A DNA stretch of 63,392 bases, the filler included, from Craspedostauros australis (Eukaryota): NCBI GenBank assembly GCA_030167865.1. It is 13 parts of 13 records of this genome, joined end to end, with 100 filler letters (N's around TTAATTAATTAA, not from the genome) between each part and the next. Parts side by side here need not be neighbours in the genome. Positions count along the whole stretch, not along the records: positions 37,907 to 43,232 come from JALAGF010004903.1; 12 more parts are not named here. The stretch is one strand, 5' to 3'. The position numbers were made by a program, and so were the translations under genes. Positions 18,583 to 59,810 of this stretch are shown here, piece after piece (position 1 is the stretch's first letter; the number at the start of each line of letters is the position of its first letter). Under the pieces are notes generated by a model. It searched no databases and was not told where the DNA came from. It worked only from the letters and a program-made list of their open reading frames with translations.

Positions 18583-18682
18583 NNNNNNNNNNNNNNNNNN
18601 NNNNNNNNNNNNNNNNNNNNNNNNNNTTAATTAATTAANNNNNNNNNNNNNNNNNNNNNNNNNNNNNNNNNNNNNNNNNNNN

Positions 18683-19113
18683 GAGAACAAAGCGCGGACT
18701 GGAACAACATCGAAGGACTGGACTGATCGTGCCAGAACTCCATGTTCTGACCAAGTGTGATTGTCGATGAGCATGTGAGAGGAGTGAGTGAACAACACGG
18801 ATGAGTGTACTGAATGAGTGATGGATGTCTGATGAGAAGAGAATGAATCAAGCATCAGCATGCATGCACCTCAGGAGTGTAGACCGATATCTCAGGAGAC
18901 AAGCATGGTGAAATGCACTTGTCATGAGCAATGAAATGGGCATGACAGAGAGAGATTGCAATGATGATTGTGAGGGGCAACTACAGGAGGCCACCAACAG
19001 CATCATGGGCAAACGAGTTGACGATCTGAGAAATGAGTGTGTTGTTCTCACAGTTCTAAAACGGTACAGTTTAATAAGCATTAGACTATATCTATAACCC
19101 CGGATTTCCAACA
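18683..19113 (-). mobile_element. LTR family B, partial, inserted into a Copia protease region
   Basis: Reverse complement of ~13183-13632. Ends CCCCGGATTTCCAACA directly against pol coding sequence. Confidence 0.85.
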
Positions 19114-22100
19114 CACAAAGTCCTTCGTCCAAGTGGGAGACAGCACGAAGCTAGACTCTCCCAAAATGGGATCCATTCGCTTGAAGGTCAAGCAACGAGA
19201 CAATACTGGCCACATCATCCGGCTCGACGATGTGAAGTACACACCGAAAATGGCGGTGAACCTTTTCTCTACGAACAAGGCTCTGTACAACGGATATCAG
19301 CTTGGTAACAACGGCATTCTGATGGACATCATCAACGGATCTGGAACGAAGATCGTGTTCGACCGAGTCTTCCCTACATCCAACGGATTCATCACGGGAG
19401 TGCAGATGCATCCCATCATGCCAACGGACGACAACAAGGCTTGCACAGCCATCATCAAGAATCCATCCAAGGAGATCAGCACAGTGAACTTGCATCGAAT
19501 GCTCGGCCACGCGCCACTCGAGACCATGAAGTGGACGGCCGCTCAGTACGGATGGAAGATCATCGGCGAGATGCCGGTATGTCGCGACTGCGCGGTCGCG
19601 AACGCAAGAGTCAAGAATATTCCGAAGGCAACCATTCCGAGAGCAACTCGCCGTGGCGAACGACTCTTCATTGACATTAGCTACACTAAACACATAAGCT
19701 TCGGAGATAAACGCTACTGGACCCTGATCGTGGACGACTGCACGGATCACTGCTGGAGTTTCTTTCTCAAGAACAAGAGTGACCAACCAGGATACATCCA
19801 ACGATTCGTCCAGACGATCAAATCACAGACTGGTGATCAACAAATCATCTTCCGTGGAGACAACAGCGGAGAGAACAAATCCACGCAGGATACTCTCATC
19901 GATGCAGGACTCAACGTGAAATTCGAATTCACGGCATCGAACACGCCGCAACAGAACAGCAGAGTGGAACGCAAGTTCGCGTATCTCTATACCAAGATCC
20001 GCTCCATGCTCAACGGAGCACAGCTCGACGAAGAGTATAGGCATGGCCTGTGGGCAGCAGCTGCAAGCACTGCCACCGCCATCGCCAACATCACCGTAGC
20101 GAAGAATCAGAAGGAGTCACCACATCAACAATTCTTCGGCAGCGATCCACCATATGCGGATGCACTCCGCACATTCGGAGAGGTAGGTGTTGTGAAGACT
20201 ACCTACGGCGGGATCACCGCCAAACTCAAGAATAGAGGAGAAGAGATGGTGTTTATTGGATATACACACCAACATGCATCAGGGGTCTACAACATGTACA
20301 GACCATCGACCAAGTCGCTAGTCTGCTCTCGCGACATCAAGTGGCTCAACCAATCATACGGACAGTTCCGTGGCTGGGCACCAGCACCGAACATATCCAG
20401 CGAAGTAGGAACGACAGACGCAGACGGCTTCACAATCATTGGACGGAAGGGAGCAATGCCAAAGACGGCAATGCGTCAAGTATCAGAAGCGAAGAGAGTA
20501 TCTTTCGCTGACAGCAACAGGTATCACATCCTATCAGACAGTGACGATGAGGATGATGAGGACGATGAAGTAGTGACCCAACTAATCCATAACGACAAGG
20601 AAGATCGGAGCGAATCCAATCATGAGGATGACGAGATCACACCATCCGGCGACGGAGTCGACGATGACACAGGCGCAACTCCTCCGAACACACCAACGAG
20701 GTCTACACATGACACACCATCCAAACCTCCACCAAGCAAACCAAGTAAGCGTGACACAACTAGAAAGGAGAGAATCTGACGTCATGAAGCACGAGGCAGG
20801 AAGGGAGAAGCTAACCCCAATCCAACTACAGGGAAGAGTATTTCCAGAGCTCTGCGTGAGCTCGCAGACTTCAACGAACGAGGTTAAAAGGAAGAAGGCT
20901 ATGAGAGTAAGTCATCATCCAATGAAGACAGTGACGAATTGAGTGATGAGATAACTGATGAGTCCAACAACGAAACTACAGATGACGAAGAAATCGTAGA
21001 CGAAGATGAAGAGATCGAGATCACTCATCATAGCACAACTGGACTATACGGGATGAACGCAATCATCACCGAGGCACCAGCGATCGACATCGGACTGTCG
21101 ATGCAGGACGAGAACAAAGAACCAGAGAAGCACATCAAACCAACAACATTCGATGGAGCCTTCAATCATCCGGATCCCATCCATCAAAAGGGATATCGAG
21201 CAGCCATCAACAAGGAGTTCGACTCCATGGATACACGAAAGGTGTACAGCAAGATCAAACGAGACGCCATTCCACGTGGCCGCAGATGCTGCAAATGCAA
21301 ATGGGTCTTTAAGTTGAAGCGCGACGGCACACATCGAGCACGGCTCGTTGCATGTGGCTATTCACAAGTTGCAGGAGTAGACTTCCAAGAGCATTACTCA
21401 CCCGTCATCCATGACGTGACCTATCGGGTCATGATGGTGATCATGCTAATCAAGAAGATGGACTGCGCGCTCGTCGATGTCGTAACGGCATTCCTACACG
21501 GAGACCTCGACGAGGAGATCTACATGAACTGTCCCAACGGGATGGATCATCAACCAGACGAAGCCCTGACCCTACACAAGCCAATCTATGGACTTGTACA
21601 AAGCGCCAGGCAATGGTTCAAGATGTTGGTATCGACCCTCAAGAATATCAACTTCGAACAGAGCGCAGCGGACCCGTGCCTGTTCTACAGGAAGACGAAC
21701 GAAGGAAGCATGATCGTGGCCATCTACGTGGACGATTGCTTCTGNNNNNNNNNNNNNNNNNNNNNNNNNNNNNNNCTGAAGGACATCCAAGGCAGCAAGT
21801 TCAAGGTGACAATCGAGCGCGGACTCGGAGACTACCTCAGCTGCAACATCGAACTGAACCACGACAAGACCAGAGCGACATTGCGTCAACCACATCTCAT
21901 CCGACACCTCATTGAAGAGTTCGGAACCAAGGTTGAAAAGATGCAACGCTATGGGACACCGGGAACTCCAGGTCAAATCATTGTACGACCATCCAAAGAC
22001 AACGGACTACAGAAGGTCGGACCAGAAGAACATGCCGAATACCGCCGAGGCGTCGGTATGCTACTCTTCCTCATCAAGCACTCGCGACCAGATATCGCGA

Positions 22101-22328
22101 ACCCTGTGNNNNNNNNNNNNNNNNNNNNNATCGGGCCCACCAAGGCCGCAATGAAGGAGATGTATCGGATCATCAAGTATGTGATCGATACAAAGGACTA
22201 TGGATTGAAGATCAATCCAGCACGTCCAGACGACGACGGCTGGTATATGGAGCTCTTCTGCGATAGCGAATATGCAGGAGACAAGAACACGAGAATCAGC
22301 GTAGGAGGGTTCATCCTATACCTGTGCA
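19114..22328 (+). mobile_element. Ty1/Copia pol (end of protease, integrase, RT, start of RNase H), inactivated
   Basis: LHRMLGH...CRDC, RLFIDI, FRGDNSGE, TPQQNSRVERK; RT CKWVFKLK, ARLVACGYSQ, DVVTAFLHG, IYGLVQSARQW, YVDD; RNase H FCDSEYAGD. The two ORFs share one frame broken by TGA at 20777 and TAA near 20885. Confidence 0.95.
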
Positions 22329-22536
22329 NNNNNNNNNNNNNNNNNNNNNNNNNNNNNNNNNNNNNNNNNNNNTTAATTAATTAANNNNNNNNNNNNNNNN
22401 NNNNNNNNNNNNNNNNNNNNNNNNNNNNGCCCGTCGCATTGATCACATCTGAGCAACAAGCCGTTCCATCACGAAACACACCTGCTCCAGCAAGGTCTTC
22501 ATCCTTCCACGCCTCCTTACGCTCTTCGCCTCACCA

Positions 22537-24483
22537 ATGCGCAACCACAACCACCAAGTCCGGACATCACTATCCACAGCCTCACCGTCTCTCATTCCGC
22601 TCAAGTCGACTCCTGGTGATGCATCCAACCCGACCGTCACCAACCAGGATCTCCTTCGCGCCGCAGAACAGGGAGATGTGGACACCCTCACTGCGTGGAA
22701 GACGGCATTTCCACAAACCTCCATCGACACGATCAAGGATAGCCGCGACAAGACTCCACTCCACCTCGCATGCTCCAACAGCCAACTTGAAACGATCAAA
22801 CAGTTGGTGGAGTCATGTGGAGCGGACGTCAATGCCCAATCCATGAATGGAGAGACTGCGCTACACTATGCATGCGCACAGGGCAACCTCGATGTCGTGG
22901 AATACCTAGCTGGGTCGCATTCTTCAGATGCCAACCTCCAGGACAACTCCGGCAAGGTGGCACTCCACGACGCATGTACCAAGGGACATGTGGCCATCGT
23001 GAAGACTCTGATCGAGTCATATTCTGCAAGCGCTTTCGTGCAAGATAAGAAGGGTGAGAATGCCCTCCATGCTGCGTGTCTTCATGGACACTTGGATGTT
23101 GTGGAGTACCTCGTTGGATCATGTGGAGTGGACATCAATGTGCAAGATGATTTCGGCAATACTGCGATCCACAATGTGTGTCTGAAGGGTCATCTTGCTG
23201 TTTTGAAGTATGTGATGGAGACCCGTACTGTGTCCATCGACGTCCAGAACAATGACGGCGATACCGCGCTTCATGTTGCATACAGAAATGGGCATATGGA
23301 TGTTGCAGAGTACCTGGTGAAGTCGTGCAAGGCAGATGTTCATGTTGAGAATGACGCTGGTGGCACGGCTCTTCAGTCTGCATATTCCAAAGGCCCTCTG
23401 GATGTTGTGAGATGGTTGGTGGAGTCAGGTCAGGTGGACATCAATGCCAAAGACCGGAATGGCAACACTGTCCTTCACTACGCAAGTGCTGGAGGTCATC
23501 TGGATGTGGTGGAGTATTTGGTGGACTTAGACGACCTGATGGTGGATGGCAACGCCAAGAACAACTATGGCAACACTGTCCTTCACTACGCAAGTGCTGG
23601 AGATCATCTGGATGTGGTGGAGTATTTGTCGAAGTCAGACGACCTGACGGTGGATGGCAACGCCAAGAACAACGATGGCAACACTGTCCTTCACTGCGCA
23701 AGTGCTGGAGGTCATCTGGATGTGGTGGAGTACTTGTTGAAGTCAGACGACCTGATGGTGGATAGCAACGCCGAGAACAACAATGGCAACACTGCCCTTC
23801 ACTGCGCAAGTGCTGGGGGTCATTTGGATGTGGTGAAGCATTTGGTGGACTCAGGCGACCTGATGGTGGATGGCAATACCAAGACTAAGGCTGGCAACAC
23901 TGCACTCCATCTTGCAACCGCGCATGGGCATCTGGATGTTGTGAAGTGGCTGGTTGAATCCGTCAAGGCCAATATCAACGCTGAGAACGACAAACACGAG
24001 ACTCCACTCTTCAAGGCATATCGCAACAGCCACTTCGATACTGTCAAGTATCTTATCGCAGCACCCGATGTTGATTTGAACGTCACAGACCAGGAAGGCG
24101 ACACCATCCTCCATCGTGCAAGCGCTGAAGGCAATCTCGACGTTGCGAAGTTGTGGGTCGAACAAGGCAAGGCAGATGTCAACATCAAAACCAACAATCA
24201 TGGCAGCACTGCACTGCACTGTGCGTGCTTCAAAGGTAGATTGGAGGTCGTGAAGTATTTGGTAGAATGTTGCAATGCAGAAATCGACATCCAAAACAGG
24301 GATGGCAGAACTCCACTTTGGCGGGCAAGTTGGAGAGGTAAATTGGAGGTGGTCAAGTACTTGGTGGAATCGTGCAACGCAGACATCAGCATCAAGGATC
24401 ACAGTGGCGACACTGCCCTGGATATTGCGAAAGCAATTGGCCACACTGATATTGTCGACTGCTTGACCCCTCTTGCAAGATGA
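22537..24483 (+). CDS. Ankyrin-repeat protein (~18 repeats), 648 aa
   Basis: Repeated G-x-T-A/P-L-H-x-A...G-H-L-D-V-V-x-Y-L motif. Four near-identical 108-bp units at ~23461-23892. Confidence 0.95.
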   Translation: MRNHNHQVRTSLSTASPSLIPLKSTPGDASNPTVTNQDLLRAAEQGDVDTLTAWKTAFPQTSIDTIKDSRDKTPLHLACSNSQLETIKQLVESCGADVNAQSMNGETALHYACAQGNLDVVEYLAGSHSSDANLQDNSGKVALHDACTKGHVAIVKTLIESYSASAFVQDKKGENALHAACLHGHLDVVEYLVGSCGVDINVQDDFGNTAIHNVCLKGHLAVLKYVMETRTVSIDVQNNDGDTALHVAYRNGHMDVAEYLVKSCKADVHVENDAGGTALQSAYSKGPLDVVRWLVESGQVDINAKDRNGNTVLHYASAGGHLDVVEYLVDLDDLMVDGNAKNNYGNTVLHYASAGDHLDVVEYLSKSDDLTVDGNAKNNDGNTVLHCASAGGHLDVVEYLLKSDDLMVDSNAENNNGNTALHCASAGGHLDVVKHLVDSGDLMVDGNTKTKAGNTALHLATAHGHLDVVKWLVESVKANINAENDKHETPLFKAYRNSHFDTVKYLIAAPDVDLNVTDQEGDTILHRASAEGNLDVAKLWVEQGKADVNIKTNNHGSTALHCACFKGRLEVVKYLVECCNAEIDIQNRDGRTPLWRASWRGKLEVVKYLVESCNADISIKDHSGDTALDIAKAIGHTDIVDCLTPLAR

Positions 24484-24595: not shown

Positions 24596-25341
24596 TGTTG
24601 GAAATCCGGGGTTATAGTTAGTACTAAATTCTAATCTGCTGTTAGAAACTGTACCGTTTTAGAACTGTGAGCACAATCTCACTTTCTCTTCCGATTTCGT
24701 CTGCATGGCAGGCATCTGTCGCGGTGGCGACACGGGGCATCCTGTTGTCTCTTAGGTGCTTCTCTCTTCATTCATCATGCTCTGTTCTTGCTTCCTTGTC
24801 TCTGCATCGTTGTAGCTGTCTACGCTTGCATGGTACGGATCTGCAGTCTTGAGCTCTTGCCTATCTCATGTTTCCGTCATTGATCTCATGACACCATCAT
24901 CTCATGGTCGATGTCACTTTTGGTGATGTTCCAAACCTGCAGTTGTTCTGATCCTTTCTGATGTTCCAAACCTGCGGATGTTCTTGTCCGCAGGAGGGGC
25001 GCGTGCTGTCCTCTGAAGAAGGTGCGTCACCTGCTCATGGACTTACCGTTCTGATCGACGTCGTCGTCTGCATGGTTGCCATGGTTGGCTTGGTATCGGG
25101 ACTTCCTGATCTGCCATGGGTGTCGTCCTTGCGTTACTGGAGGACAGGCTATCTTCCTCATGGTAGTACAGGTATCAATCGCGTCCGTACCCTTAGTCAT
25201 AGTCATATTGACCTGGCATATAAAGGTGTGACATATAGTCTCAGAACATGTGACGAATAATATTCAAAGCTGTGACGAACAATGTTGGGAGGTGCGGCAA
25301 TCACGGATATTCCGACAAAGTCGTACCCTCAATTCCTAACA
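24596..25341 (+). mobile_element. Solo LTR, family B, 746 bp, with 6-bp TSD ACTATT
   Basis: TGTTGGAAATC...AATTCCTAACA, with ACTATT at 24590-24595 and 25342-25347. Confidence 0.9.
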
Positions 25342-29487: not shown

Positions 29488-29587
29488 NNNNNNNNNNNNN
29501 NNNNNNNNNNNNNNNNNNNNNNNNNNNNNNNTTAATTAATTAANNNNNNNNNNNNNNNNNNNNNNNNNNNNNNNNNNNNNNNNNNNN

Positions 29588-34640: not shown

Positions 34641-35159
34641 GCGGCGACTCAACGGACTCGCCCAAATACGCTTTATGAGAAGCCGTTTTTTTTTTAAATC
34701 CTCTTGCACTGGCCAGCTCGACTCACGACATGCCTCATGTCTTAAATTTATAATAATCGTTGCAGTTGTGGGAATTGAACAAACAATGATCATGCGTCGT
34801 GCGTCACCCTCCTTGTCGTGTCGCACCGTTGCTGTGATTTTGCATTTGCTGTCATCGTGGGTTGATGTTTCGCATGCACTCACACACACCTGTTCCGCCA
34901 ATTCCGTTGCTTTCACTGTTGCTCGTGGATACTCGCCAACGAAATCCACAACCTCGTCGTTTCTCCATCGCCACTCCACTGATCTTCCCATCACACACAT
35001 CACTTCCCCATCTTCCTCCACATCAACACATGTTCAACATGCACTTGCAATCTGCCCATCCCACACTTCGACATGCCAACATTGCAATGACACTCGCTTC
35101 TTCTGCTGTTGCAAAACACAATTGAAGCATGTCTTCTTTCCAGTTCTCACAAAAAACAG

Positions 35160-37475
35160 CAGCAGCACACTCGAGCAACTTCCACCCCAGCAACGGACAG
35201 CATCATCAATACAAACAACTCACCAAACCAACAGCACCGTACTCAATCAACTTCCACCCCAGCAACAGACAGCATCATCAATACAAACAACTCACCAAAC
35301 CAACAGCAGCAGCACCGTGCTCGATCAACTTCCACTCCAGCGACGGACAGCATCATCAATGCAAACGACTCACCAAACCAACGGCACCGTGCTCAATCAA
35401 CTTCCACCCCAGTGATGGACAGCATCATCAATGCAAACAACTCACCAAACCAACGGCACCGTACTCGATCAACTTCCACCCCAGCAACGGACAGCATCAT
35501 CAATGCTAACAACTCACCAAACCAACAGCACCATGCTCGATCAACTTCCACCCCAGCAACGGACAGCATCATCAATGCAAACAACTCACCAAACCAACAG
35601 CAGCATGCTCGATCAACTTCCACCCCAGCAACGGACAGCATCATCAATGCGCACAACTTACCAAACCAACAGCAGCATGCTCGATCAACTTCCACTCCGG
35701 TGACAGACAGCATCATCAATGCGAACAAGTCACCAAACCAACGGCAGCAGCACCGTGCTCGATCAACTTCCACTCCAGCAACGGACAGCATCATCAATGC
35801 AAACAACTCACCAAACCAACAGCACCGTGCTCGATCAACTTCCACTCCGGTGACAGACAGCATCATCAATGCAAACAACTCACCAAACCAACAGCACCGT
35901 ACTCAATCAACTTCCACCCCAGTGATGGACAGCATCATCAATGCTAACAACTCACCAAACCAACAGCACCGTGCTCGATCAACTTCCACTCCGGTGACAG
36001 ACAGCATCATCAATGCGCACAACTTACCAAACCAACAGCAGCATGCTCGATCAGCTTCCACTCCGGCGACAGACAGCATCATCAATGCGAACAAGTCACC
36101 AAACCAACGGCAGCAGCACCGTGCTCGATCAACTTCCACTCCAGCAACGGACAGCATCATCAATGCAAACAACTCACCAAACCAACGGCAGCATGCTCGA
36201 TCAACTTCCACTCCGGTGACAGACAGCATCATCAATGCGAACAAGTCACCAAACCAACAGCACCATGCTCGATCAACTTCCACTCCGGTGACAGACAGCA
36301 TCATCAATGCAAACAAGTCACCAAACCAACGGCACCGTGCTCGATCAACTTCCACTCCGGTGACAGACAGCATCATCAATGCTAACAACTCACCAAACCA
36401 ACAGCAGCAGCACCGTGCTCGATCAACTTCCACTCCGGTGGCAGACAGCATCATCAATACAAACAACTCACCAAACCAACAGCATCGTGCTCGATCAACT
36501 TCCACCCCAGCAACGGACAGCATCATCAATACAAACAACTCACCAAACCAACAGCAGCATGCTCGATCAACTTCCACTCCAGCAACGGACAGCATCATCA
36601 ATGCTAACAAGTCACCAAACCAACAGCACCGTGCTCGATCAACTTCCACCCCAGTGACAGACAGCATCATCAATGCGAACAACTCACCAAACCAACGGCA
36701 CCGTGCTCGATCAACTTCCATCCCAGTGATGGACAGCATCATCAATGCGAACAACTCACCAAACCAACGGCACCGTACTCGATCAACTTCCACCCCAGCA
36801 ACGGACAGCATCATCAATGCAAACAACTCACCAAACCAACAGCACCGTGCTCGATCAACTTCCACCCCAGTGACAGACAGCATCATCAATGCGAACAACT
36901 CACCAAACCAACGGCACCGTGCTCAATCAACTTCCACCCCAGTGATGGACAGCATCATCAATGCTAACAAGTCACCAAACCAACGGCACCATACTCGATC
37001 AACTTCCACTCCGGTGACAGACAGCATCATCAATGCGAACAACTCACCAAACCAACAGCACCGTGCTCGATCAACTTCCACCCCAGTGACAGACAGCATC
37101 ATCAATGCGAACAACTCACCAAACCAACGGCACCGTGCTCGATCAACTTCCATCCCAGTGATGGACAGCATCATCAATGCGCACAACTCACCAAACCAAC
37201 GGCACCGTGCTCGATCAACTTCCACTCCGGTGACAGACAGCATCATCAATGCGAACAACTCACCAAACCAACAGCACCGTGCTCGATTAACTTCCATCCC
37301 AGTGACAGACAGCATCATCAATGCAAACAACTCACCAAACCAACAGCAGCAGCAGCATGCTCGATCAACTTCCACTCCGGTGACAGACAGCATCATCAAT
37401 GCGAACAAGTCACCAAACCAACAGCACCGTGCTCGATCAACTTCCACTCCGGTGACAGACAGCATCATCAATGCG
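35160..37475 (+). repeat. 72-bp minisatellite, ~32 copies, open in one + frame (HRARSTSTPVTDSIINANNSPNQQ)n
   Basis: CAGCATCATCAAT recurs every 72 or 78 bp and length variants are CAG triplets. ORF 35109 onward has no stop before the gap. Confidence 0.95.
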
Positions 37476-37906
37476 AGCACCTACGGGCAGGGTGTCAGCA
37501 CTGGCGCATTCAGCATGCANAATGCAACACANGACCCAAATCCACAGCCAGCCACAGNACCTGNNNATGGTGACATCCATCAAGTGTCCCNGAGTCCACC
37601 TCGACATATTTCAGTTGCGCCAAACCAATCCTTGATTGGTGTTGCCACTGGCCTCGGTGTATGCCTCAACAGTGGCAACGACAACACCAGCAACAACAAT
37701 GTTGACCACAACAATGCCAACGCCAACTCCGACAATGATGACAATGGCAATGTTGGCTTCAATATTGACAGCATAAGCAATGGAGATGACAACGGTAATG
37801 GAGATGNNNNNNNNNNNNNNNNNNNNNNNNNNNNNNNNNNNNNNNNNNNNTTAATTAATTAANNNNNNNNNNNNNNNNNNNNNNNNNNNNNNNNNNNNNN
37901 NNNNNN

Positions 37907-38214
37907 CTTTCTCTTCCAATTTCACTTTTCATGGTAGGCATCTGTCGTGGTGGCGACACGGGGCACCCTGTTGTCTCTTAGGTGCTTCTCTCCCTGTTCA
38001 TCATGCTCTGTTCTTGCTTCCTTGTCTTGGCATCATTGTTGCTTGCCTCTGCTTCATCGTAGCTGTCTACGCTCGCATGGTAGGGATCTGCAGTCCTGAG
38101 CGCTTGCCTATCATCTGCTTTCGTTGTTGATCTCATGACACCATCGTTCCAGGATCGATGTCAGCCTTGGTGATGTTCCAAACCTGCGGATGTTCTGATC
38201 CTTTCTGATGTTCC
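37907..38214 (+). mobile_element. LTR family B fragment, target of the family C Copia insertion
   Basis: Matches ~24682-24967 and breaks exactly after CTGATGTTCC. Confidence 0.88.
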
Positions 38215-38741
38215 TAATAGAGCCCAAACGTAATGGCTGTTGTCTTGTTGGCTGTTGATAGCTGTGGGCAGAGGCTTGATTGGCAAGCGGTCCGAACGTG
38301 AGTCTTCTGGATCACAAGTAGTCAATTGAGAATACTGATGATGGGTGAAGAAACGTGCGGGTTATGAGATTAGTGCTATGGTTCTTCCCTGCAGGGAGGA
38401 TCTCCTGTGGTGTCCTGAATGACAATGTGTGTGGGTCGTGTAGCCCAAGTACCGTGGGTCGAGATCCGTTGGCTGAGTTCTTTGAGAGACAATGGGCGAT
38501 GATGCGCGTTGCTGGGGCTCTGTTTCCATGTGTCGGCGTTTTGGCGATGGTGGGTGTCAGAAACTGGGTTATCGGAACCCTACTGGTTCCCTGACACAGG
38601 TTCCGAAGATCTGCTTCAAGGTTCTGGATCTGTCCCCAAACGTGGGGGCCGGTGAAGTAATCATCCGATCTACTGGAATGCTGACGGGTCGGATGATTCG
38701 TAGGCTCTCTCGCTAAGATGGTTACTAGTTTAGCTCTATTA
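38215..38741 (-). mobile_element. 3' LTR (family C, 527 bp) with non-canonical TAATAGAGC...GCTCTATTA termini
   Basis: Perfect 9-bp terminal inverted repeat. Polypurine tract GAGATGAAGGGGAG (38742-38755, - strand) is directly upstream. A second copy ends at 57376. Confidence 0.9.
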
Positions 38742-38839
38742 CTCCCCTTCATCTCACGTCAAAACGTGAGTTGACTGAAAGCAAGAAAGCTAACTGTAGC
38801 GTGGGTTGATCCGCCGCCCAAGATGGCGGCGAGCGGGCT

Positions 38840-40594
38840 TCATTCGGGCTGTTCGTTGTTGTCGTTGTAGCCGCGACCTTGGTGACGGTTGGTGGACATG
38901 TGTTCCAATGCCTCATTCAACAAGGAGGTGATGCTGACCTGTTGGACGTGGTTGATGTGGTCAAGCCCTCCGCGAAAAAGGATATCGGTGAGAGCTTGGA
39001 TGGCCGGAAGTGTCCTGTTGTCGGTTTGGAGGACGGCCTTGATCTGAGCTGTGGGGTTGGGGGACATCTGGAAGATGGATGGTTGCGCCATCGTTGGTTC
39101 TCGGCTGTTGGACATGATGTATCCGGACCGGAGACGTCGGGGTGACGGGTATGCGATCATTGGTCGGGGCTCCGTTTGGGCCTTCTTGTTCGCGTTGCTG
39201 GTCTCCGGTGTGTCAGGGGTCGATGGTAGGGGATGGTTCAAGACGTGGGATTTGCGAGTGTTGATGTTCGCATACTCATTGTTGTTCACAGGTGCCGGGT
39301 ACGCGGTTGCTACCAGCACGTCATCATCGGTTGGTTCCTCTGGTAGTGTAGGAACCTCTGGTTGTTCATCCTGGGTTATGGGAGGCACCGGTACTGCAGC
39401 CTTGGCGGGTTTCTCCGCGGTCGTGGTGGGAGCCCCTTTCGTGTTGATGATCCCACTTGCGGATTTCTTGGCGGACCTGGCCTGTTTGATCATCTTGATT
39501 CCTGACATTCCCGAGGAAACGGTGGATTCCTCGGATTCATCGAAAATCCCCTTTCTCTTGGGGGGTTGGCTCCGGTTGCCGCTGCCTCCAGAGCTGGACC
39601 GTCGCAATGCTTGGTCTCGTTTGACTGATTTGTCTTCTGGTTGGTAGATGGACCCAGAATCATCACTGTCGCCGGGCCCTGGGGTGGACGCGCTATCTAC
39701 CGAATGGTCTGTTGATGGTAGGGGTTTTGGCCGGATCTTGTCGGTGTACCCTTGTCCATCTCGCATGGCAGTCATGATTTTGGATCGCGGTGATGGTTGT
39801 GAGGATCGCCTGACGGGGGGTCTGGGTCGGCTGATTACCGCTCCGCTTGCGATCTCCGCTTCCACGTCAATCACGTCTTTGGGGTCTTGCGGATCCTGAT
39901 CTTCATCCTGGTCTGCCTCTGGATCAGATCCGTGGCGGTTGGCTTCTTCCGCGGTCATCTTCTCATCGAAGTGCCCGTCGGGGATCTCATCCAAGAACCT
40001 GCTATCGGGCGTCTCTCCTTCCTCAAGGCTGGGTTTGGTGTCCTTGAGGACAGGTATGCCGTCGACCATCTCATCGTCACTGGTGGGTGGGTTGGCTTCT
40101 CCTGTGAGTGCATTAGCCTCTCGCATGAGATTGTTGGCGAGAGTGTCGCTTTGCTTTCGGACCTCTTGTGCCTTCTGTGCTCGTGGGAGGATGATTGGGA
40201 TCCGGTTCTTTCTTACTTTGAAGAAGTGGCAGATGGATGGTTTCCGCATGACCGTGCGAAACGTGTCTGGTGGTTTGGCCCATGCGCCGTCCTCTCTGGG
40301 GTAGAAGCATTGACCGTCGGCTATGGCGATGCTGAGGACTTCATTGGCTTGGAGATAGTTGTCCATATATTCGGAGAGGGTGAGGGGAAAGATGGATTGT
40401 TTCTCCGCGTAGGTGACGAGGCCGGTAGGCGCCTTATTGTTCCCCTTTGTGCAGTAGATATGCACTCTGCGGCCACTGAACCCAACGACGACTCCTTGGA
40501 AGGTTCCTTTCTTTCCTGCAGGGTACAGCACTCTGGATCCAGGGACGGGGCATCGGGTACCATCGTAGAACGGGGTGTACTTCAGGAACGTCAT
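38840..40594 (-). CDS. Extra 584-aa ORF between Copia pol and the PPT/3' LTR; function unknown
   Basis: Uninterrupted ORF whose ATG overlaps the pol TGA (ATGA, 40591-40594). Beta-rich N-terminus, long D/S/P/K-rich disordered middle, short helical C-terminus. Confidence 0.8.
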   Translation of the reverse strand: MTFLKYTPFYDGTRCPVPGSRVLYPAGKKGTFQGVVVGFSGRRVHIYCTKGNNKAPTGLVTYAEKQSIFPLTLSEYMDNYLQANEVLSIAIADGQCFYPREDGAWAKPPDTFRTVMRKPSICHFFKVRKNRIPIILPRAQKAQEVRKQSDTLANNLMREANALTGEANPPTSDDEMVDGIPVLKDTKPSLEEGETPDSRFLDEIPDGHFDEKMTAEEANRHGSDPEADQDEDQDPQDPKDVIDVEAEIASGAVISRPRPPVRRSSQPSPRSKIMTAMRDGQGYTDKIRPKPLPSTDHSVDSASTPGPGDSDDSGSIYQPEDKSVKRDQALRRSSSGGSGNRSQPPKRKGIFDESEESTVSSGMSGIKMIKQARSAKKSASGIINTKGAPTTTAEKPAKAAVPVPPITQDEQPEVPTLPEEPTDDDVLVATAYPAPVNNNEYANINTRKSHVLNHPLPSTPDTPETSNANKKAQTEPRPMIAYPSPRRLRSGYIMSNSREPTMAQPSIFQMSPNPTAQIKAVLQTDNRTLPAIQALTDILFRGGLDHINHVQQVSITSLLNEALEHMSTNRHQGRGYNDNNEQPE

Positions 40595-43152
40595 GGTGGC
40601 TGTTCTTGTCTGGTGTGGGATGAGGTTGTATCCAGGGTCTTGATTGTGGCAGCTCCATTTTGAGGGGAAGGGATGTTCACGTCGCGGAACGAGAAAGTGG
40701 GTGCGGTTGTGTTTCGTGCCAGGTCTTCCTGGAGATCAGCAATCAGCATGTCGCACCTGTATGTTTCATGCTCAGGTGTGACGAAAACCCGAGATGCCAG
40801 GCCCGTGTGGAAGGAAGTTTCGCAGGTACCTTCTTCAATAGCCGGCATGGTAGCTCCTGGTGGTGGTTTCCGGAACTTGGTCGATGTGGCGACGTGTGAT
40901 TGGTTGGTTGGCATGATGGGCGCTGTCTCCAGCATGTCTCTTGGATAGTAGAGGACTTCGCTACCGCAAGACGCCGTGGAGGGGTTGATACTTGAGAGCG
41001 TACTGAATTCATCGGTGAGGGCTGATGGTGGTGTGTCACCGCGCCGGATCAGGAATTTGTCGGTTGGCGCACCGGCTGGCTCGTGGTTCTGATTCGTGGC
41101 ACGGTTATCGGTCATGTCGTATACAACACTGGAATTTCGCGTCTGTTGGCGGTTGGACGAGGTTGGTGTACTCATGGTGCGCCTTATGGGCCTGGGTGTT
41201 CTCCTTTGTGCCAATTCGAGGGGGTTCGGTTCTCGTTGGGTTCTGGTTAGCCGAAGGGTTTTTGATGTCGGGCTGTACTTCATGGAGGTCTGTTGGTACC
41301 TTGCCATGTTCACGCTCATAGTGTGTTCTTCCTTCGGTGGTGGTGGTTCTTGCGTCTCCGCGGCCATTATATCGGGATCATCGTCTGCTCTGGTCGTCCT
41401 GCTCTTTGTTATGGCTTGTGATATGGTTTCGTTGTGGTATCCGGACTCATGGATTGAGTTCCGGAATATCGTTCTCGACGTGATGTGGTGGAATGGTGTC
41501 TTGGAAAGAGGTTTGGTTAGTATGTCAGCGATGTTGTCAGCTGACGCGATGTGGGCGAACACGATGATTCCAGCGGCAATGCATTCCCGGATTTGATGAA
41601 AGGCCAAAGAGCAGTGTTTCTTCTTCAGTGTCGAGGAAGGGACCGTGGTGTTGAGTACCACCGCTTTGTTGTCCCCGAGCATGATTGCGGGTCCGTCGAT
41701 GGGGACTCCGAGGTCTCTCAGCATGTAGCGCAGACCTGTGACCGCCTCGGTAGCTATCCTGGCTGCTACCAATTCGGATCCGTAGGTGGATGTTTCCACT
41801 GTGTTCTGTCGCTTGCAGATGGTCTTGACGATGGTATTGTTGATCAATAGTACCATGCCCGTCATGGATTTCCGTGTGACTTGGTCGTGGCCATGGTCGG
41901 CATCCACGTAACATGTGATTTGGATCGGCTTCCCTTTTGGTGTTGGTACTGATACGGGGGTGACTTCTGCGGCGGTAGGGTAGACTTCTCTCCAATGGCT
42001 TGAGAGGGTGGTGTCGATGTTCGTGTGATCCACTGGGTTGGGGTCGCAGAGAATGGCTCCCTTTTCTCGACCTTTAAGGTACCCGACGATGCGTTGGATG
42101 GTCAGAAGATGTCCCTCCCTTGGTGCCATAGCGAACCGTGCCATCGTCGTCATGGCGTATTGGATGTCCAGCCTCCCGAGGGTCACGACCCAATTGAGGC
42201 AGCCCAGAATTGATCGGTAGGTCCTGGCATCTTCGCTGCTCGTGAAATCCGATGTGTCGCTTTCCGGGTGACAAGCCTCTACCTTGGGGGTGGATGCCTT
42301 CGGGATTGTCTTCCCTACTAGCTGCTCTACTCGTTTGATGACGTTTCCAATGTATGTCTGGGCCGAGAGTCCGATGTTGACTCCCCTGTCCTTCCAGTTC
42401 TTGGGGAGGTCGACGATGTTTCCGCCGAGGTAGTACTCTGGGTCACCGCATTGCTTCATGGTGTACCGTTTCTTGAGGTCGTCGATGATTGGGATGGGAT
42501 CCTTGCTGAAAACCAGTACGTCGTCCACGTACGTGGTGATCATCTCGTAGTGGTCGTCGGCTTCTCGGGTGTAGATGTCGTTGTCGGCTTTGGAGGGTAG
42601 GAATCCCATGGTTCGTAGGGTGTCCGCGAAGTGTTCGTGGAACCTCGCGCTTGATGTCCTCAGGCCGTAGAGTCCCTTTTGTATGATGAGGGGTTTGCCT
42701 TCGAGGTCGCCAAACTCAGGTCCTGCCCGGATGTAGCATTTCTCGAGGGTGTCTGCGTATAGGAACGCGTTCCCTACATCGCCGGTGAATGCCCTCAGTC
42801 CGTTGGCTGCTGCGATGGCGAAGGCGATTCGAATGGTGTCTGATGCTACCACCCCTGAGTAGACGTCTTCTGTTGGTGGGGATGTCTTGTTTCCGTTTGC
42901 CACCAGTCTCGCCTTTCGACGTAGGTCGAACTTCACATCGTAAACGATGTGGTATGGGATCTTGGTGTACCCATCGAGTGCTTTGTTCGGTCTTGGTTGT
43001 CTGAAGGTTCCCAACCGTTTGATCTGGTCCAGTTCCTTGTTGATGGCTTCGCTCCAAAGTCCGTTTCCGTTGAGCCTGTCGATAGCCATGGCGTGTTTCA
43101 GGCTGTTGGGTACCAGGGTGCCGAACTTGTACTTGTTTCCTGGGCGGTGGTT
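40591..43152 (-). mobile_element. Ty1/Copia (CoDi-like) RT-RNase H with a long C-terminal extension; 5' part cut by an LTR insertion and the gap
   Basis: KYKFG...AIDRLNGNGLWSEAINKE, YDVKFDLRRKARLVANG, DVGNAFL, LYGLRTS, YVDDVL; RNase H YVDADHGHD, ETSTYGSELVAAR, GDNKAVV, ADILTKPL. The frame is intact. Confidence 0.95.
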
Positions 43153-43232
43153 TGTCGAGATGTACATGTGAGTATATGTCGAGATGTACGTGTATATGTG
43201 CATCGTTCACCCGTTATTCTCTCATACGCACT
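43153..43232 (+). mobile_element. LTR family A terminus inserted into Copia pol
   Basis: TGTCGAGATGTACATGTGAGTATATGTCGAGATGTAC, the reverse complement of 53066-53146 and ~12053-12131. Confidence 0.88.
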
Positions 43233-44212
43233 NNNNNNNNNNNNNNNNNNNNNNNNNNNNNNNNNNNNNNNNNNNNTTAATTAATTAANNNNNNNNNNNN
43301 NNNNNNNNNNNNNNNNNNNNNNNNNNNNNNNNTAATTGACTGGTTGATACAGCCGACCCATACGACTCCAGGGCATCATCCGCAGGAAGAAGACGGGACA
43401 CACAGCGGGAATGCAAGCCATGTGCATCACCCCGCAATGGAGACCCAAACTTAACGGTTATAACGGCCACACTAGGGCCACATCCCTAAGTAAGGACAAT
43501 TCGAACCATGTGCGACAACGGCCATTTGATGGCAATGCGGAGCTCACAAAATGATCGCCCGCGGCGACAAAATCGACACACAAACAAAAACTCAAAAACA
43601 CGGAATGCGCTATCGATGACACCAATTGCAAACCCATCAGAGAAGATGCAATCGGATAGTGAAGCCGGACCAAGACCCGCTTCGAGCAAATGAGAAACGA
43701 AGGAGGTCGAACACGAGGAGATTGAGTTGCCTGCAAGAGAAAGGGGAAAGAGAGAAGAGAAACAACAAGCAGAGAAGCGATGAGACAAGCAACAACCGAA
43801 ACGCGCACAATTTGGAAAAGACGAAAGAATTGTCACACTCCTCGCTTCGGATAACGCTTCCTGCAACGCTTCAAATTTTTTAACCCACCTTCCCGCCCTT
43901 TGGGGATTCCAGCGCTCTCCCTCCAACCAGGATCGAATCGGTCAACACCAACGCAAACAGCCGAGGCAGAGACCAGAGACGAACTTGGCTAGGAGGGATC
44001 GAGCCGGATGATCCAAGGCAAGCTTGGAGGTGCTAGTAACCCTACCACCCAACGCAGACAAGCTATGTGTCTATTGGATTAGCCCTTCATTCTCTTTTCC
44101 TCCTTTTTCCATTCACGGATCATTGCTGACTCACACTACTCGATTGACTCGATCCAAGCTGTTCCCGGAACTACGACCTGCAAGTCGCAGTTGATGCACT
44201 TACGATAACACT

Positions 44213-46832: not shown

Positions 46833-48376
46833 CCTGGTATTTGCGCAATCTGCGCACCACACTGGCTCCATATACCCCCCATCTATCTACTCCATGAAGG
46901 ACAGGACGTTCTGGGTGCATCTCATACTCCAAAGTCTCCCTGCACTGAAACGCAGAAATTTAAAAAACGGTTTCGATGCGGATACCGTTCATATTTGGAT
47001 CCGTATCTTGTCAAGATGATCCTTGCAGCTCCTCCACATGCCCCTCATGCGTTCCCACATTCTCTGGCAACACACTGATGTGTTCAGAATGGGTGGGTAG
47101 TTCATACCTCCAAAGGTACACCTCCATGTGATGAGGCCATCATGGAGTTTTTGCGACACCCCAAAAACACCTTTTGTGTGCATCCCACCTTGCAGCCTCT
47201 TGCAGACTCCAGAATATTCTGGCGCTTCATTGACCGACCAATGAGTTGATTTTGAACACATCTTCAATGGGGGGCTTGGAGATCTGGGTGACTTGTCAAT
47301 GGCACCCATCACCACCCAAGCCATGTGATGTGTCTGCTGCCACCCACCAAAAAACTCTTGCCCTCCACTTGTTTCTTGCAGAGGGCACCTTCCAGCCCAC
47401 CCCCGACCCTCAAACTTTGTGGACATCTTCATCGTATCCACCTGGATGCGTCTTGCTCATCCATGGTCGTTGGGATGGCCTGTGTATTCCAGGCAGAGAC
47501 CATATCCAACAAGCAGATTATCCTCCGAATCATGTCATTTGCGCGTGAGCCTGCCACGACCCCAAATCAACCAAGATGGCATCCCCCTCTTGCTCATCTA
47601 CCAAGCTTTACATGGCGGTTCCGCCTATGCGCTCAGATCTTGCACTGAACCGCTGGTTGTTGCAGTGCCGATGATGCCGTTCGACGGTGCTTGAGGAGTT
47701 TTGTTGTGTTTCTCCGTCGTCGTGTTGTTGTGTTGTGTTTGGTGTTCTCAACCAGTTTTTGCTGTTGGGGGCTGTGGAGATTAACCACAATTCTACCGAA
47801 TGTGCCAACCAATGAGAACACTTTTTGAGTCCCGAATTGCACCTCCATTCCACAACACCAAAACTATCGTCACAAAGTGGACAACGGAAACATTGCGCAT
47901 CTGGGACGACCTGCTGTTGATTCTCTGCTGCTTGTAGCCATTGCTTGTACAACAATGTACAATGACTGTGACTCTCCACATGAGAGAGAGTGGATGATAC
48001 AATGCACCTTGTGCCTGTCCTCCAATGTTGCCCATGCCCCTTGTGATGCGCCGCGCCGTGCTGTGTGTCGATGGCGGATGGTGCGGTGCGATGTGTCGTG
48101 TTGCTGCCCTTGTGTTTCTGGTGTGCATTGTGATGCGCCTTTCGAATAGACCGCTTCCTCCATCAACACAGCACACACAATCCTGCAATCACTGTACTCT
48201 TCACCTTGCAAACATGCTGTGCGCTGGTGATTGTGTGAAGGTGGCACCTCACACAGACTCAAATGACAAGATCCGTGACCTGGGCATATGCCATGTTGAG
48301 TTTGCAATGAAGCAGACCACGGACAGCGCTACGATCAAATGCGATGGGCCTTGCCGTTGGAAATATGGGGTTCCCA

Positions 48377-48922
48377 TGTCGAGATATGCATGTGTGCATG
48401 TGCATCGCTCACCCACCATTCTCTCATACTCATGTACGGACGGTACAATACACAGGTGTCGATAGTGAGCTGTGATTTGTCAAAATCACATCACGAAATT
48501 GAACACACGAAAATGAGCAGAGTTTCTGGAAGAAATTTGCAAACACCGATTTCTGAGAGTATCAGGAACATCGTCCGTCCATCCATCAATGGAAACGTAT
48601 GACGTCGAGCGAAGCTCAATGTATTTCCCAACTAAACCTCAGATGACAACATCCTCACCAAGCCATCGCATCATTGATGAAACATGACATCTGGAGGAAC
48701 GTGGAACAGGACAGCTGACATCGACAGGATGTCATCGTGTCACCACGTTGACATCTGTCTCCACATCAGATCAAGAAGGGGAAGATTCGATGACCGAAGA
48801 GCATCGAGATCATGGATACACGAGGTGAAGCTCAAGTGGAAAGCACTTGTGGAGTAGCAGGCCAGTAGAGAACGAACGGAGTGTCAAATGTGGAGTACGC
48901 ATCGAACATGGAGTATCGCGTG
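48377..48922 (+). mobile_element. Diverged LTR family A copy, interrupted at ~48923
   Basis: Starts TGTCGAGAT and aligns with the reverse complement of 11855-12110 and with 29588-29870. Confidence 0.8.
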
Positions 48923-49006: not shown

Positions 49007-49106
49007 NNNNNNNNNNNNNNNNNNNNNNNNNNNNNNNNNNNNNNNNNNNNTTAATTAATTAANNNNNNNNNNNNNNNNNNNNNNNNNNNNNNNNNNNNNN
49101 NNNNNN

Positions 49107-52965: not shown

Positions 52966-53065
52966 NNNNNNNNNNNNNNNNNNNNNNNNNNNNNNNNNNN
53001 NNNNNNNNNTTAATTAATTAANNNNNNNNNNNNNNNNNNNNNNNNNNNNNNNNNNNNNNNNNNNN

Positions 53066-53146
53066 AAGTGCGTATGAGAGAATAGCGGGTGAACGATGCA
53101 CATATACTCGTACATCTCGACATATACTCACATGTACATCTCGACA
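53066..53146 (-). mobile_element. LTR family A terminus abutting a minisatellite
   Basis: Ends TACATCTCGACA, matching the other family A ends. Confidence 0.88.
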
Positions 53147-56390: not shown

Positions 56391-56952
56391 AAGAAAGAAA
56401 TAGTGACACAGTAAAAGCAAACACTGTAGGGATGCTTGTTGTTGTTGTTGTTGCTGTTGTTGAAGCTGCTGTGTTCACAAGTACTGTTGTGTGGAATGAA
56501 GAGTGATGTGCAAAGCATCTGACCTGCACAGAATGCAAAACAGTGTCACGATAGCACTAGTTGTGGAGTTTTGTGGGTGGTGAGTCGTGATAAATAGACT
56601 AATCTAGAGCACAACCAAAACCATCCAGACGACTGCTCATCATGCTATATCTCATCAACACGTGGTTTAATATTAAAAAAAATAGTGAATTCGGACGCCT
56701 GTCTATCGGTTATTCTGAATATCGAAGTTGCATTTCTATGAACTTTATTTTTAGCATCGCTTTGGCTTGCTGACTGTCATGTGGTGGATGCCAAAAATTC
56801 TTGATTGTGCCCTGCTGCCGTTCGTTCAGCACCCACTATCATCATCATCATCNNNNNNNNNNNNNNNNNNNNNNNNNNNNNNNNNNNNNNNNNNNNTTAA
56901 TTAATTAANNNNNNNNNNNNNNNNNNNNNNNNNNNNNNNNNNNNNNNNNNNN

Positions 56953-57376
56953 GGAGACAGATCCAGAACCTTGAAGCGGATCTTCGGAATTCATGTCAGG
57001 GAACCAATGGGGTTCCGATAACCAAGTTTCTGACACTTACCATCGCCAAAACGCCGACGCACGGAACCAAAGCCACAACAACGAGCATCATCGCCCATTG
57101 TCTCTCACAGAACCCAGACGACGGATCTNNNNNNNNNNNNNNNNNNNNNNNNNNNNNNNNNNNNNNNNNNNNNNNNNNNNNNNNNNNNNNNNNNNNNNNN
57201 NNNNNNNNNNNNNNNNNNNNNNNNNNNNNNNNNNNNNNNNNNNNNNNNNNNNNNNNNNNNNNNNNNNNNNNNNNNNNNNNNNNNNNNNNNNNGTCCGGAT
57301 CGCTTGCCAGTCAAGCCTCTGCCTACAGCTAAAGAACAGCCAACAAGACAACAGCCATTACGTTTGGGCTCTATTA
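56953..57376 (+). mobile_element. LTR family C, second copy (3' part), inserted into a Copia integrase
   Basis: Reverse complement of ~38215-38637. Ends GGGCTCTATTA directly against integrase codons KYWLLV. Confidence 0.88.
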
Positions 57377-59710: not shown

Positions 59711-59810
59711 NNNNNNNNNNNNNNNNNNNNNNNNNNNNNNNNNNNNNNNNNNNNTTAATTAATTAANNNNNNNNNNNNNNNNNNNNNNNNNNNNNNNNNN
59801 NNNNNNNNNN

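Follow-up and report, generated by a model that had tools for sequence, protein, structure and literature searches.

The window analyzed here, a stretch of 63,392 nucleotides from Craspedostauros australis (GenBank assembly GCA_030167865.1), consists of 13 short contigs of a fragmentary assembly that are joined by N spacers. One of these contigs (37907-43232, 5326 nt, JALAGF010004903.1), bounded by N44-TTAATTAATTAA-N44 spacers, contains the 3' half of a single copy of a retrotransposon that, judging by its sequence, is a Ty1/Copia LTR element; gag, PR, INT, the 5' LTR, the PBS and a target-site duplication are absent from the window. In the orientation of the element, which is read on the minus strand, the following features succeed one another:

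43152..43232, minus strand: repeat unit of 80 nt with which the contig opens in element orientation; not Copia sequence, with pol homology starting right after it
41455..43140, minus strand: reverse transcriptase (RT) and RNase H part of a Ty1/Copia pol, identified by Pfam RVT_2 and by relatives
40591..41454, minus strand: C-terminal extension of pol, an open frame of about 290 codons that follows the conserved ...IFR terminus of RNase H, together with the TGA stop
38840..40594, minus strand: ORF2, 584 aa, 64 kDa, pI 6.1, ATG to TGA, the ATG overlapping the pol TGA as ATGA
38742..38755 (38755-38742 as read), minus strand: polypurine tract (PPT) GAGATGAAGGGGAG, directly before the LTR
38215..38741 (38741->38215 as read), minus strand: 3' LTR of 527 nt with a 9-nt TIR, beginning TAATAGAGC and ending GCTCTATTA
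37907..38214, no strand assigned: flanking DNA, a dispersed repeat hosting the insertion, which begins GGAAC, a possible 5-bp target site

The pol frame spans 871 codons from stop to stop (40591..43206, minus strand, closed by the TGA at 40593-40591), and its residues 82-294 match Pfam RVT_2 (PF07727) with an E-value of 6.8e-24. A homology search retrieved 1250 relatives of the RT-RNase H region at E<=0.001, the best 120 of these 1250 being 48-57% identical to the query over 57-71% of its length. RNase H gave no separate Pfam match; the region aligns end to end with the 1250 relatives up to the ...ADILTKPL...IFR motif. At the other end of the element, the PPT and the unusual LTR termini that had been proposed in an earlier note on this DNA were both borne out: the LTR follows the purine tract and has TA...TA rather than TG...CA ends. 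A partial second copy of the LTR, 87-92% identical, is present at 56953-57377 on another contig and diverges right after ...CTCTATTA. The flanking DNA is 81% identical (blastn; 85-90% in two gap-free blocks) to positions 24682-24970 of yet another contig, and this similarity ends at the same base as the LTR, which provides a second support for the LTR 3' end. Because the PPT and the TIR-bounded LTR, the latter starting 98 nt past the ORF2 stop, lie downstream of ORF2, and the end of the LTR is confirmed on two other contigs, ORF2 is internal to the element. The assignment of ORF2 to a Copia element by the earlier note is supported by RVT_2, the PPT and the LTR, with the correction that what the 5326-nt contig holds is only a 3' fragment. 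The 80-nt unit at the opposite end of the contig recurs at 53066-53145, the start of another contig, and at 12052-12131, with different flanks each time; a weaker copy is found at 48376-48432, where the flanks differ again.

Past RNase H, homology between this pol and its relatives is lost some 40 residues after the start of the segment at 41574. The pol frame stays open over 40591-41526, where the other two sense frames contain 13 and 10 stops. The extension matched no Pfam family at E<=10, and the homology search found no relative for pol residues 530-849; in all 12 relatives examined, the protein ends no more than about 80 residues past the RNase H motif. The placement of ORF2 between RNase H and the PPT accordingly stands as regards position but has to be amended, given that pol itself runs about 290 codons beyond RNase H, over a stretch that is absent from the relatives.

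ORF2 is intact over its 584 codons when read on the minus strand from 40594 to 38840, and its overlap with pol is as previously described: the plus strand has tcat at 40591-40594, which is ATGA in the minus-strand reading, so that the ORF2 ATG (40594-40592) and the pol stop overlap out of frame. The ORF2 frame is open for 47 more codons (141 nt) upstream, where the pol frame is open as well, and these codons include no ATG, which makes the overlapping ATG the first one in the frame; the start codon is embedded in the context GCCACC-ATG-A. From stop to stop, the ORF2 frame comprises 631 stop-free codons, compared to a mean of 169 and a maximum of 442 in 1000 dinucleotide-preserving shuffles, and the base frequencies at the third codon position (C 0.42, T 0.12) are similar to those of RT-RNase H (C 0.45, T 0.08). 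Thus, ORF2 is not a chance ORF. It could be argued that the frame is open simply because the sense strand is T-poor (only 15% T) and the copy is young, with no protein being made, and the lack of relatives and the largely low-complexity character of the protein would fit such an explanation. However, the other two sense frames, which have the same composition, contain 16 and 23 stops across ORF2, no shuffle reaches 631 codons, and the three-base periodicity of ORF2 resembles that of RT-RNase H, so we consider it extremely improbable that ORF2 is not a gene.

The same conclusion on coding capacity follows from a codon model trained on RT-RNase H, which favors the ORF2 frame in each of the four quarters of ORF2, most strongly in the first 150 codons, and shows no frame preference on the LTR. 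The junction is also where the coding signal changes frame, from pol to ORF2, the switch falling within about 45 nt of the ATGA. This transition bears on the possibility that the extension and ORF2 are, or once were, a single long pol tail split by a 1-nt indel, either real or a sequencing error, with the ATGA being coincidental. Such a split would be compatible with the fragmentary assembly, with its Ns and short contigs, with the unusual extension that pol already possesses and with the 141 nt before the ATG over which both frames are open. Against it, the pol frame scores about 9 bits above the ORF2 frame in the 135 nt before the ATG and meets two stops within 4 codons after the ATGA, so that any shift must sit almost exactly at the ATGA; furthermore, the ORF2 frame has its first ATG right at the pol stop, and no slippery heptamer of the form X_XXY_YYZ, as expected for a programmed -1 ribosomal frameshift fusing pol to ORF2, was detected in any frame of the 141-nt stretch. 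On balance, a split pol tail appears very unlikely.

The predicted product of ORF2 is not envelope-like because it contains no hydrophobic segment: by the Kyte-Doolittle scale, a crude measure rather than a dedicated predictor, no 19-residue mean exceeds 0.73, and the mean over the first 30 residues is -0.37. The earlier claims that ORF2 has neither a signal peptide nor a transmembrane helix and is not an envelope glycoprotein agree with these values. The N-terminal region of about 135 residues is basic, with mixed beta and alpha character; the middle of the protein consists of a long acidic and then basic Ser/Thr/Pro-rich segment, which is probably disordered and includes a KRK patch at residues 346-348; and a stretch of about 60 residues at the C-terminus is probably helical. 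Much of the protein is of low complexity and looks disordered, and two AlphaFold2 single-sequence models were both of low confidence (pLDDT of 41.7 and 57.3). Searches of the ESM Atlas gave either chance-level similarities or none.

The earlier note had also assigned a small beta-barrel of the KOW/Tudor/SH3 type to the N-terminus of ORF2, and this assignment found no backing: no Pfam or PDB match was obtained at E<=10, the ESM Atlas similarities are at chance level, and the model with a mean pLDDT of 41.7 shows only one hairpin, at residues 32-50. Even the best Atlas score, 0.80, is equalled by shuffled proteins in a third of cases. The corresponding functional proposal, namely, that the N-terminus is a Tudor/SH3-like reader that tethers the element to chromatin as a targeting or anti-silencing factor, can be connected to several leads. 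A relative of the element, P0116, contains a PTM/DIR17-like Tudor domain between integrase and RT (Pfam, E 6.6e-14), so such modules do occur in the group to which the element belongs; BLASTP places ORF2 residues 9-61 on this very domain, albeit at a non-significant E-value of 2.1 and 22% identity; and small barrel families are among the Atlas leads, at scores of 0.77-0.78 that are again at chance level, alongside the predicted hairpin. With no Pfam family at E<=10, all similarity scores at chance and the low pLDDT, a Tudor reader in ORF2 is very doubtful.

Searches for relatives of ORF2 itself returned nothing: no second copy in the 63-kb window (tblastn, blastn), no relative in a word search of 5.8 billion proteins or by HMMER against 1.84 billion representatives, no copy in metagenome contigs, viral contigs or prokaryote-labelled genome contigs, and no Pfam family or PDB sequence match at E<=10. 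Compared pairwise with the pol extension, P0116 and 128 related polyprotein pieces, ORF2 likewise gave nothing significant. As there is no ORF2 relative in any of these searches, the integrity of the ORF is the sole sign of selection. Relatives of pol are more accessible. An alignment-based scan of genome contigs identified 23 pol loci, all in bins labelled bacterial, which were used in the comparisons below; a metagenome contig scan with pol gave only two short matches, of no use for the 3' end, and scans of viral contigs gave no pol relatives. By tblastn, neither ORF2 nor the pol extension was detected in any of 25 loci of relatives. In all 13 distant relatives with a visible pol end, the stop occurs no more than 37 codons past the end of the match, and none of the 13 has an ORF of more than 31 codons starting near the pol stop, which implies that the feature is not ancestral to the wider group. 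Several relatives appeared by eye to carry a chromodomain-like stretch between integrase and RT; in the 10 that were tested, Pfam did not confirm it.

This restricted distribution bears on the possibility that the pol extension and ORF2 are a captured passenger, that is, host or other foreign coding DNA present in this copy or in a small sub-lineage and useless to the element. The absence of both segments from the 12 relative proteins, from the 13 loci with a visible pol end and from the 25 loci searched by tblastn is what such a capture predicts, and LTR elements are reported to have captured additional ORFs (PMC5408684; PMC7264820). On the other side, no host-like homologue was found in any of the searches; the compact ATGA junction with its GCCACC context has the look of an adaptation; and base skew and third-position usage match the element rather than most of the non-Copia ORFs compared. 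Specifically, the AT skew and T3 values are 0.32 and 0.12 for ORF2 and 0.29 and 0.08 for RT-RNase H, and the overall AT skew in two other Copia fragments is 0.25-0.28; the majority of the non-Copia ORFs of the window used for comparison differ (0.08 and 0.26 for an ankyrin ORF), although two reach skews of 0.23 and 0.31. The element-like skew of ORF2 argues against a very recent host capture, and we consider a useless passenger unlikely.

Together with the coding statistics and the location of ORF2 within the element, these comparisons lead us to favor, with a probability of roughly 55%, the view that ORF2 is a genuine protein-coding aORF of this Ty1/Copia element and specifies an element-encoded accessory factor; it is plausibly an orphan accessory ORF. 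Under this scenario, the lineage of the element would have added about 870 codons after RNase H, of which about 290 were fused to pol and 584 became an independent cistron, whose start (GCCACC-AUG) overlaps the pol stop in the AUGA. ORF2 would then specify a soluble 64-kDa protein, presumably made in a lower amount than Gag-Pol, either through reinitiation at the overlapping AUG by ribosomes that have finished pol or from an RNA, subgenomic or spliced, whose first AUG is this one. AG dinucleotides, which a splice acceptor just upstream of the AUG would require, occur at 40610-40598. The protein might serve the element's own cycle as a flexible adaptor, at the particle, cDNA or nuclear steps.

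In TURBS, motif 1 is UGGGA, which is located upstream, within a folded element, and is complementary to 18S rRNA. UGGGA, a motif that may not fit the 18S rRNA of this host, is lacking from the sense strand over the 2 kb that precede the ATGA; the nearest upstream TGGGA on this strand is at 42604-42608, 2 kb away. Folding of the 150 nt around the junction (40565-40714) gave a z-score of +0.72, no better than shuffles, 154 of 200 of which fold just as well. Termination-reinitiation from pol to ORF2, for which the ATGA is the one sequence feature, is therefore neither supported nor excluded. A still bolder version, to which we attach a low probability, is that a protist Copia lineage invented a new cistron whose 64-kDa accessory product, largely disordered, represents a new sequence family and would be translated from the full-length element RNA by AUGA reinitiation after a very long gag-pol ORF and without a calicivirus-type TURBS. 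If true, this would be the first LTR retrotransposon with a stop-start coupling of pol to an accessory gene, and it would add to the examples of retrovirus-like accessory gene gain.

Env-like 3' ORFs are known in plant Sireviruses (Ty1/Copia) and in the Athila/Tat elements (Ty3/Gypsy). More generally, additional ORFs (aORFs) in sense orientation that lie between pol and the 3' LTR form a recognized class in LTR retrotransposons (PMC7264820). ORF2 resembles this class in being located after pol and before the PPT and 3' LTR, in its sense orientation, and in its dissimilarity to gag or pol. Unlike the env-like ORFs of Sirevirus and Athila, ORF2 has no transmembrane or signal segment, and it begins on the pol stop whereas the aORFs begin after a spacer; moreover, Sirevirus and Athila are found in plants, whereas the relatives of the present element come from environmental and MAG-bin contigs. 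In bdelloid rotifers, LTR retrotransposons carry additional ORFs beyond gag and pol, shared or captured (PMC5408684); the host group is a different one, and ORF2 is similar to nothing in the libraries searched. With regard to the junction, stop-start termination-reinitiation (AUGA or UAAUG) is described for caliciviruses, for influenza B TURBS and for the non-LTR retrotransposon SART1 (PMC10275272), and pol-ORF2 shares with these an overlapping, out-of-frame stop and start that ends a long ORF. The calicivirus and influenza B TURBS have an upstream element, whereas pol-ORF2 has no UGGGA within 2 kb and no stable structure; the SART1 type needs a downstream structure, a region of which the pol-ORF2 fold covered at most 30 nt, and couples ORF1 to ORF2 of a non-LTR element rather than pol to an accessory ORF.

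The way from simple LTR retrotransposons to complex, retrovirus-like ones is marked by extra genes. To our knowledge, almost all described LTR retrotransposons with extra genes are from plants and animals, and an orphan, non-envelope ORF that is stop-start coupled to pol in a Copia element from a microbial eukaryote would extend this range and provide a compact system in which to test reinitiation downstream of a very long ORF. Being derived from one truncated copy in a fragmentary assembly, the ORF2 finding has the value of a lead.

A word search of the open-access literature, not an exhaustive one, found no report of an aORF in CoDi-like or other diatom Copia elements. Judged from published descriptions, the present element may be compared with the CoDi lineage of diatom Copia elements, a comparison that can be taken only as a lead. 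CoDi elements occur in diatoms and ocean samples, 3 of the 26 families have LTR ends other than TG/CA, as does the present element, and full lengths are 5.2-8.1 kb, with a search for extra ORFs mentioned, in the excerpted text, only upstream of the polyprotein (PMC2806351). The present element would be longer, at about 4.9 kb from the RT start to the LTR end alone. The integrases of CoDi-A are described as having an extra chromatin-reader module (PMC2774666), which may be compared with the Tudor domain of P0116, and, as with CoDi in the ocean samples (PMC2806351), the RT-RNase H relatives of the ORF2-bearing element are numerous in metagenome assemblies.

The frame that the earlier note singled out, here called ORF2, runs on the minus strand for 584 codons from an ATG at 40594 to a TGA at 38842-38840, and its start indeed overlaps the stop of the preceding frame: the pol TGA lies at 40593-40591, and the tetranucleotide ATGA is common to the pol end and the ORF2 start. 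The frame ahead of it (43206 to 40591) is a Copia reverse transcriptase (Pfam RVT_2, E = 6.8e-24). Ahead of the ATG, 47 further codons of the ORF2 frame are stop-free and include no ATG, and the six bases directly 5' of the start, GCCACC, agree with the vertebrate Kozak consensus, which may not be the preferred context of the host. The 63-kb window is split by 12 spacers into 13 short, unrelated contigs and is not a single stretch of chromosome; features apparently crossing spacers, such as ORFs running through them, are artefacts. Because the ORF2 contig comprises 5.3 kb between spacers, statements on the Copia element of ORF2 are confined to those 5.3 kb.

Spacers, the ORF2 contig and Copia-related features
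9996-10095, 15894-15993, 18583-18682, 22329-22428, 29488-29587, 37807-37906: first six N44-TTAATTAATTAA-N44 spacers
43233-43332, 49007-49106, 52966-53065, 56853-56952, 59711-59810, 61764-61863: last six spacers
37907-43232: contig bearing ORF2, 5326 nt
38755-38742, minus strand: purine run GAGATGAAGGGGAG, 98 nt past the ORF2 stop
38741-38215, minus strand: LTR-like unit of 527 nt adjoining the purine run, starting TAATAGAGC and ending GCTCTATTA
43152-43232 (minus strand), 53066-53145, 12052-12131: 80-nt unit, three copies 97-98% identical; weaker copy at 48376-48432
19085-22328: Copia piece with integrase and RT, on another contig
57374-59710: Copia piece with gag-protease, on another contig

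The two ends of the 527-nt unit form a perfect 9-nt inverted terminal repeat, and the purine run with this unit gives the picture expected of a PPT and 3' LTR, so that ORF2 lies between pol and the PPT, as had been proposed. The far end of the LTR is set by two independent comparisons: a partial second copy (56953-57377 of a different contig; 87-92% identity) aligns as far as ...CTCTATTA and diverges after it, and the DNA past 38215 belongs to a different dispersed repeat, a copy of which (24682-24970) loses similarity at the exact LTR-end base; the evidence for the LTR start consists of the inverted repeat and the PPT. The TA termini noted earlier are thus real and unusual, with TA...TA in place of TG...CA; the part of PMC2806351 on CoDi families (Ty1/Copia elements of diatoms) reports that TG/CA ends are absent in 3 of 26. 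Lying the opposite way round, the partial second LTR adjoins the end of the gag-protease ORF of a different Copia element (57374-59710, with zf-CCHC and Pol_BBD matches), an arrangement suggestive of a nested insertion; its contig begins within this LTR, and the ORF2 region of the sister copy is therefore lost. The RT of the piece at 19085-22328 is only 26% identical to that of the ORF2-linked element.

The ORF2 element has no 5' LTR, PBS, gag, protease or integrase, and its contig breaks off at 43232 with an 80-nt repeat, found as well at the start of the contig at 53066 and, with different flanks, at 12052; hence this copy is truncated or interrupted. The order RNase H, ORF, PPT within one Copia element stands, but pol overruns RNase H by about 290 residues and only the 3' part of the element is present. 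The 80-nt unit forms the exact start of two contigs and is internal in a third, its flanks are unrelated, and it cuts the Copia element just before the RT; it could be the end of an abundant repeat that breaks the assembly, or a library or assembly artefact.

Several lines of evidence bear on the coding status of ORF2. T is scarce on the sense strand (A 0.29, C 0.32, G 0.23, T 0.15), yet the remaining two sense frames contain 16 and 23 stops; the open frame spans 631 codons, against at most 442 in 1000 dinucleotide-preserving shuffles. Third-position C and T frequencies are 0.42 and 0.12 in ORF2 and 0.45 and 0.08 in the RT-RNase H region (RT-RH). In a codon model trained on RT-RH alone, the ORF2 frame scores best of the three sense frames in all four quarters, most clearly in codons 1-150, and no frame is favoured in the LTR downstream. 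In sliding windows of 45 codons, the coding signal leaves the pol frame at the ATGA and continues in the ORF2 frame: in the preceding 135 nt the pol frame scores -1 and the ORF2 frame -10 bits, and past it the ORF2 frame scores +9 to +15 bits and the pol frame immediately hits two stops. Given this switch, a distant frameshift is an unlikely source of the two-frame layout; no X_XXY_YYZ slippery heptamer occurs within the overlap of the two frames. Two stop-free stretches lie antisense to ORF2 on the plus strand (39803-40663, 286 codons; 39048-39647, 199 codons); the antisense frame scores almost as high as the sense frame, which RNY symmetry would lead one to expect, and both stretches were treated as shadows of ORF2.

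The strand asymmetry and third-position usage of ORF2 agree with those of the element: AT skew is 0.32 in ORF2 (T3 0.12) and 0.29 in RT-RH (T3 0.08), and 0.25-0.28 overall in the other Copia fragments of the window. Most of the eight non-Copia ORFs compared are less skewed (0.08 with T3 0.26 for an ankyrin-repeat ORF, -0.12 to 0.19 for five others); two are skewed like the element (c10, 0.23; c12, 0.31). This composition points to ORF2 having long resided in the element or arisen within it; the evidence is modest, because the compared ORFs are only putative host genes.

The ORF2 product has a mass of 64 kDa and a pI of 6.1.

Composition along the ORF2 product
Residues 1-135: basic, net +10; composition ordinary
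Residues 171-250: strongly acidic, net -22
Residues 251-400: basic; Ser/Thr/Pro make up one-third; KRK at 346-348
Residues 500-570: composition ordinary

The highest Kyte-Doolittle 19-residue mean is 0.73, so the product is not an envelope-type membrane protein, in keeping with the earlier note. The KOW/Tudor/SH3-like N-terminus suggested there found no support: ORF2 matched nothing in Pfam, PDB sequences or the Atlas, and no relatives emerged from a word search of 5.8 billion proteins, from HMMER against 1.84 billion representatives or among 128 related polyprotein pieces. AlphaFold2 without an alignment predicted a hairpin (32-50), more strands and two helices for residues 1-160 (mean pLDDT 41.7) and three helices for residues 480-584 (pLDDT 57.3), both models being too weak to base fold searches on. 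Between its integrase and RT, P0116, a protein relative of pol, carries a PTM/DIR17-like Tudor domain (residues 521-565; PF21743, E = 6.6e-14); ORF2 residues 9-61 align on it non-significantly (BLASTP E = 2.1). The part of PMC2774666 on CoDi-A elements reports a chromodomain at this place, so that a chromatin-reader module occupies the same position in both, Tudor in P0116 and chromodomain in CoDi-A.

Among 8000 candidates scored, RT-RH has 1250 relatives at E <= 0.001, the best 120 being 48-57% identical over 57-71% of the 849-residue query. All 12 relatives read end within about 80 residues of the conserved ...LTKPL...LFR motif; pol here runs on for some 290 residues more. This tail is stop-free in its own frame, against 13 and 10 stops in the two remaining sense frames across 40591-41526, and its coding signal is less strong than ORF2's. 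Pfam contains no family that matches it at E <= 10, and a search restricted to pol residues 530-849 yielded no relatives. Scanning a prokaryote genome collection with the RT-RH alignment (A3) gave 23 loci, all in bacteria-labelled bins, and two metagenome loci brought the set to 25. The 23 (L003-L025) encode eukaryote-type Copia RT-RNase H (35-59% identity) in MAG bins with labels such as Sphingobacteriaceae, Moorena and Gloeobacterales, most likely through eukaryotic contamination. In tblastn, none of the 25 loci matched ORF2 (best E = 2.9), and they matched the pol tail only over its first ~40 residues, the RNase H end. The pol end was inspected at 15 loci, two of which leave their contig; in all 13 usable ones the pol stop lies no more than 37 codons from the match end, and none has an ORF of more than 31 codons starting between -30 and +60 nt around the stop. 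In the long locus L007, with a polyprotein of 2325 codons, a 43-nt repeat about 100 nt past the pol stop recurs in the 5' region, as would be expected of an LTR directly after pol. These loci show the extra coding stretch not to be an ancestral trait of the wider group; with RT identity to the ORF2 element of only 35-60%, they bear on that group and not on sister copies of its family.

The ATGA is the sole positive sign of stop-start coupling. UGGGA, the motif through which an upstream element would pair with 18S rRNA, is absent from the sense strand over 2 kb upstream of it, and the fold of 150 nt spanning the junction is no better than shuffles. As described in a section of PMC10275272, translation in caliciviruses and influenza B can resume after a long ORF only with an upstream structured element pairing with 18S rRNA, and termination-reinitiation in the SART1 retrotransposon requires downstream structure. 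Alternatively, ORF2 could be expressed from a spliced or subgenomic RNA with its well-placed AUG first, a route that a portion of PMC7264820 reports for some plant env-like additional ORFs (aORFs).

ORF2 belongs to a known kind, the sense aORFs that LTR retrotransposons carry between pol and their 3' LTR; it has no known protein family, is joined to pol by an overlap and is not env-like. Its host element resembles diatom CoDi-like Copia by literature description only; word searches of the open-access literature found no description of such an aORF in CoDi-like or diatom Copia. The observation of ORF2 is sound, and its interpretation as an accessory protein, from one truncated copy without relatives, is reasonable but unproven; we put at about one in eight the chance that it founds a new family and is a true accessory gene expressed by reinitiation.

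Two other repeat-rich frames were seen in the window. Ankyrin repeats (Pfam Ank_2, E = 1.4e-169) make up nearly all of the frame at 22453-24483 (676 codons), which begins at a contig edge and so is probably a partial gene; its placement 'after' the Copia piece at 19-22 kb is a spacer artefact, the two being on separate contigs. At 35013-37500, a unit of 72-78 nt is repeated in tandem about 31 times, giving an open frame of 815 codons that encodes DSIINANNSPNQQHRARSTSTPAT-like repeats of 24 residues; the opposite strand contains long open frames too.
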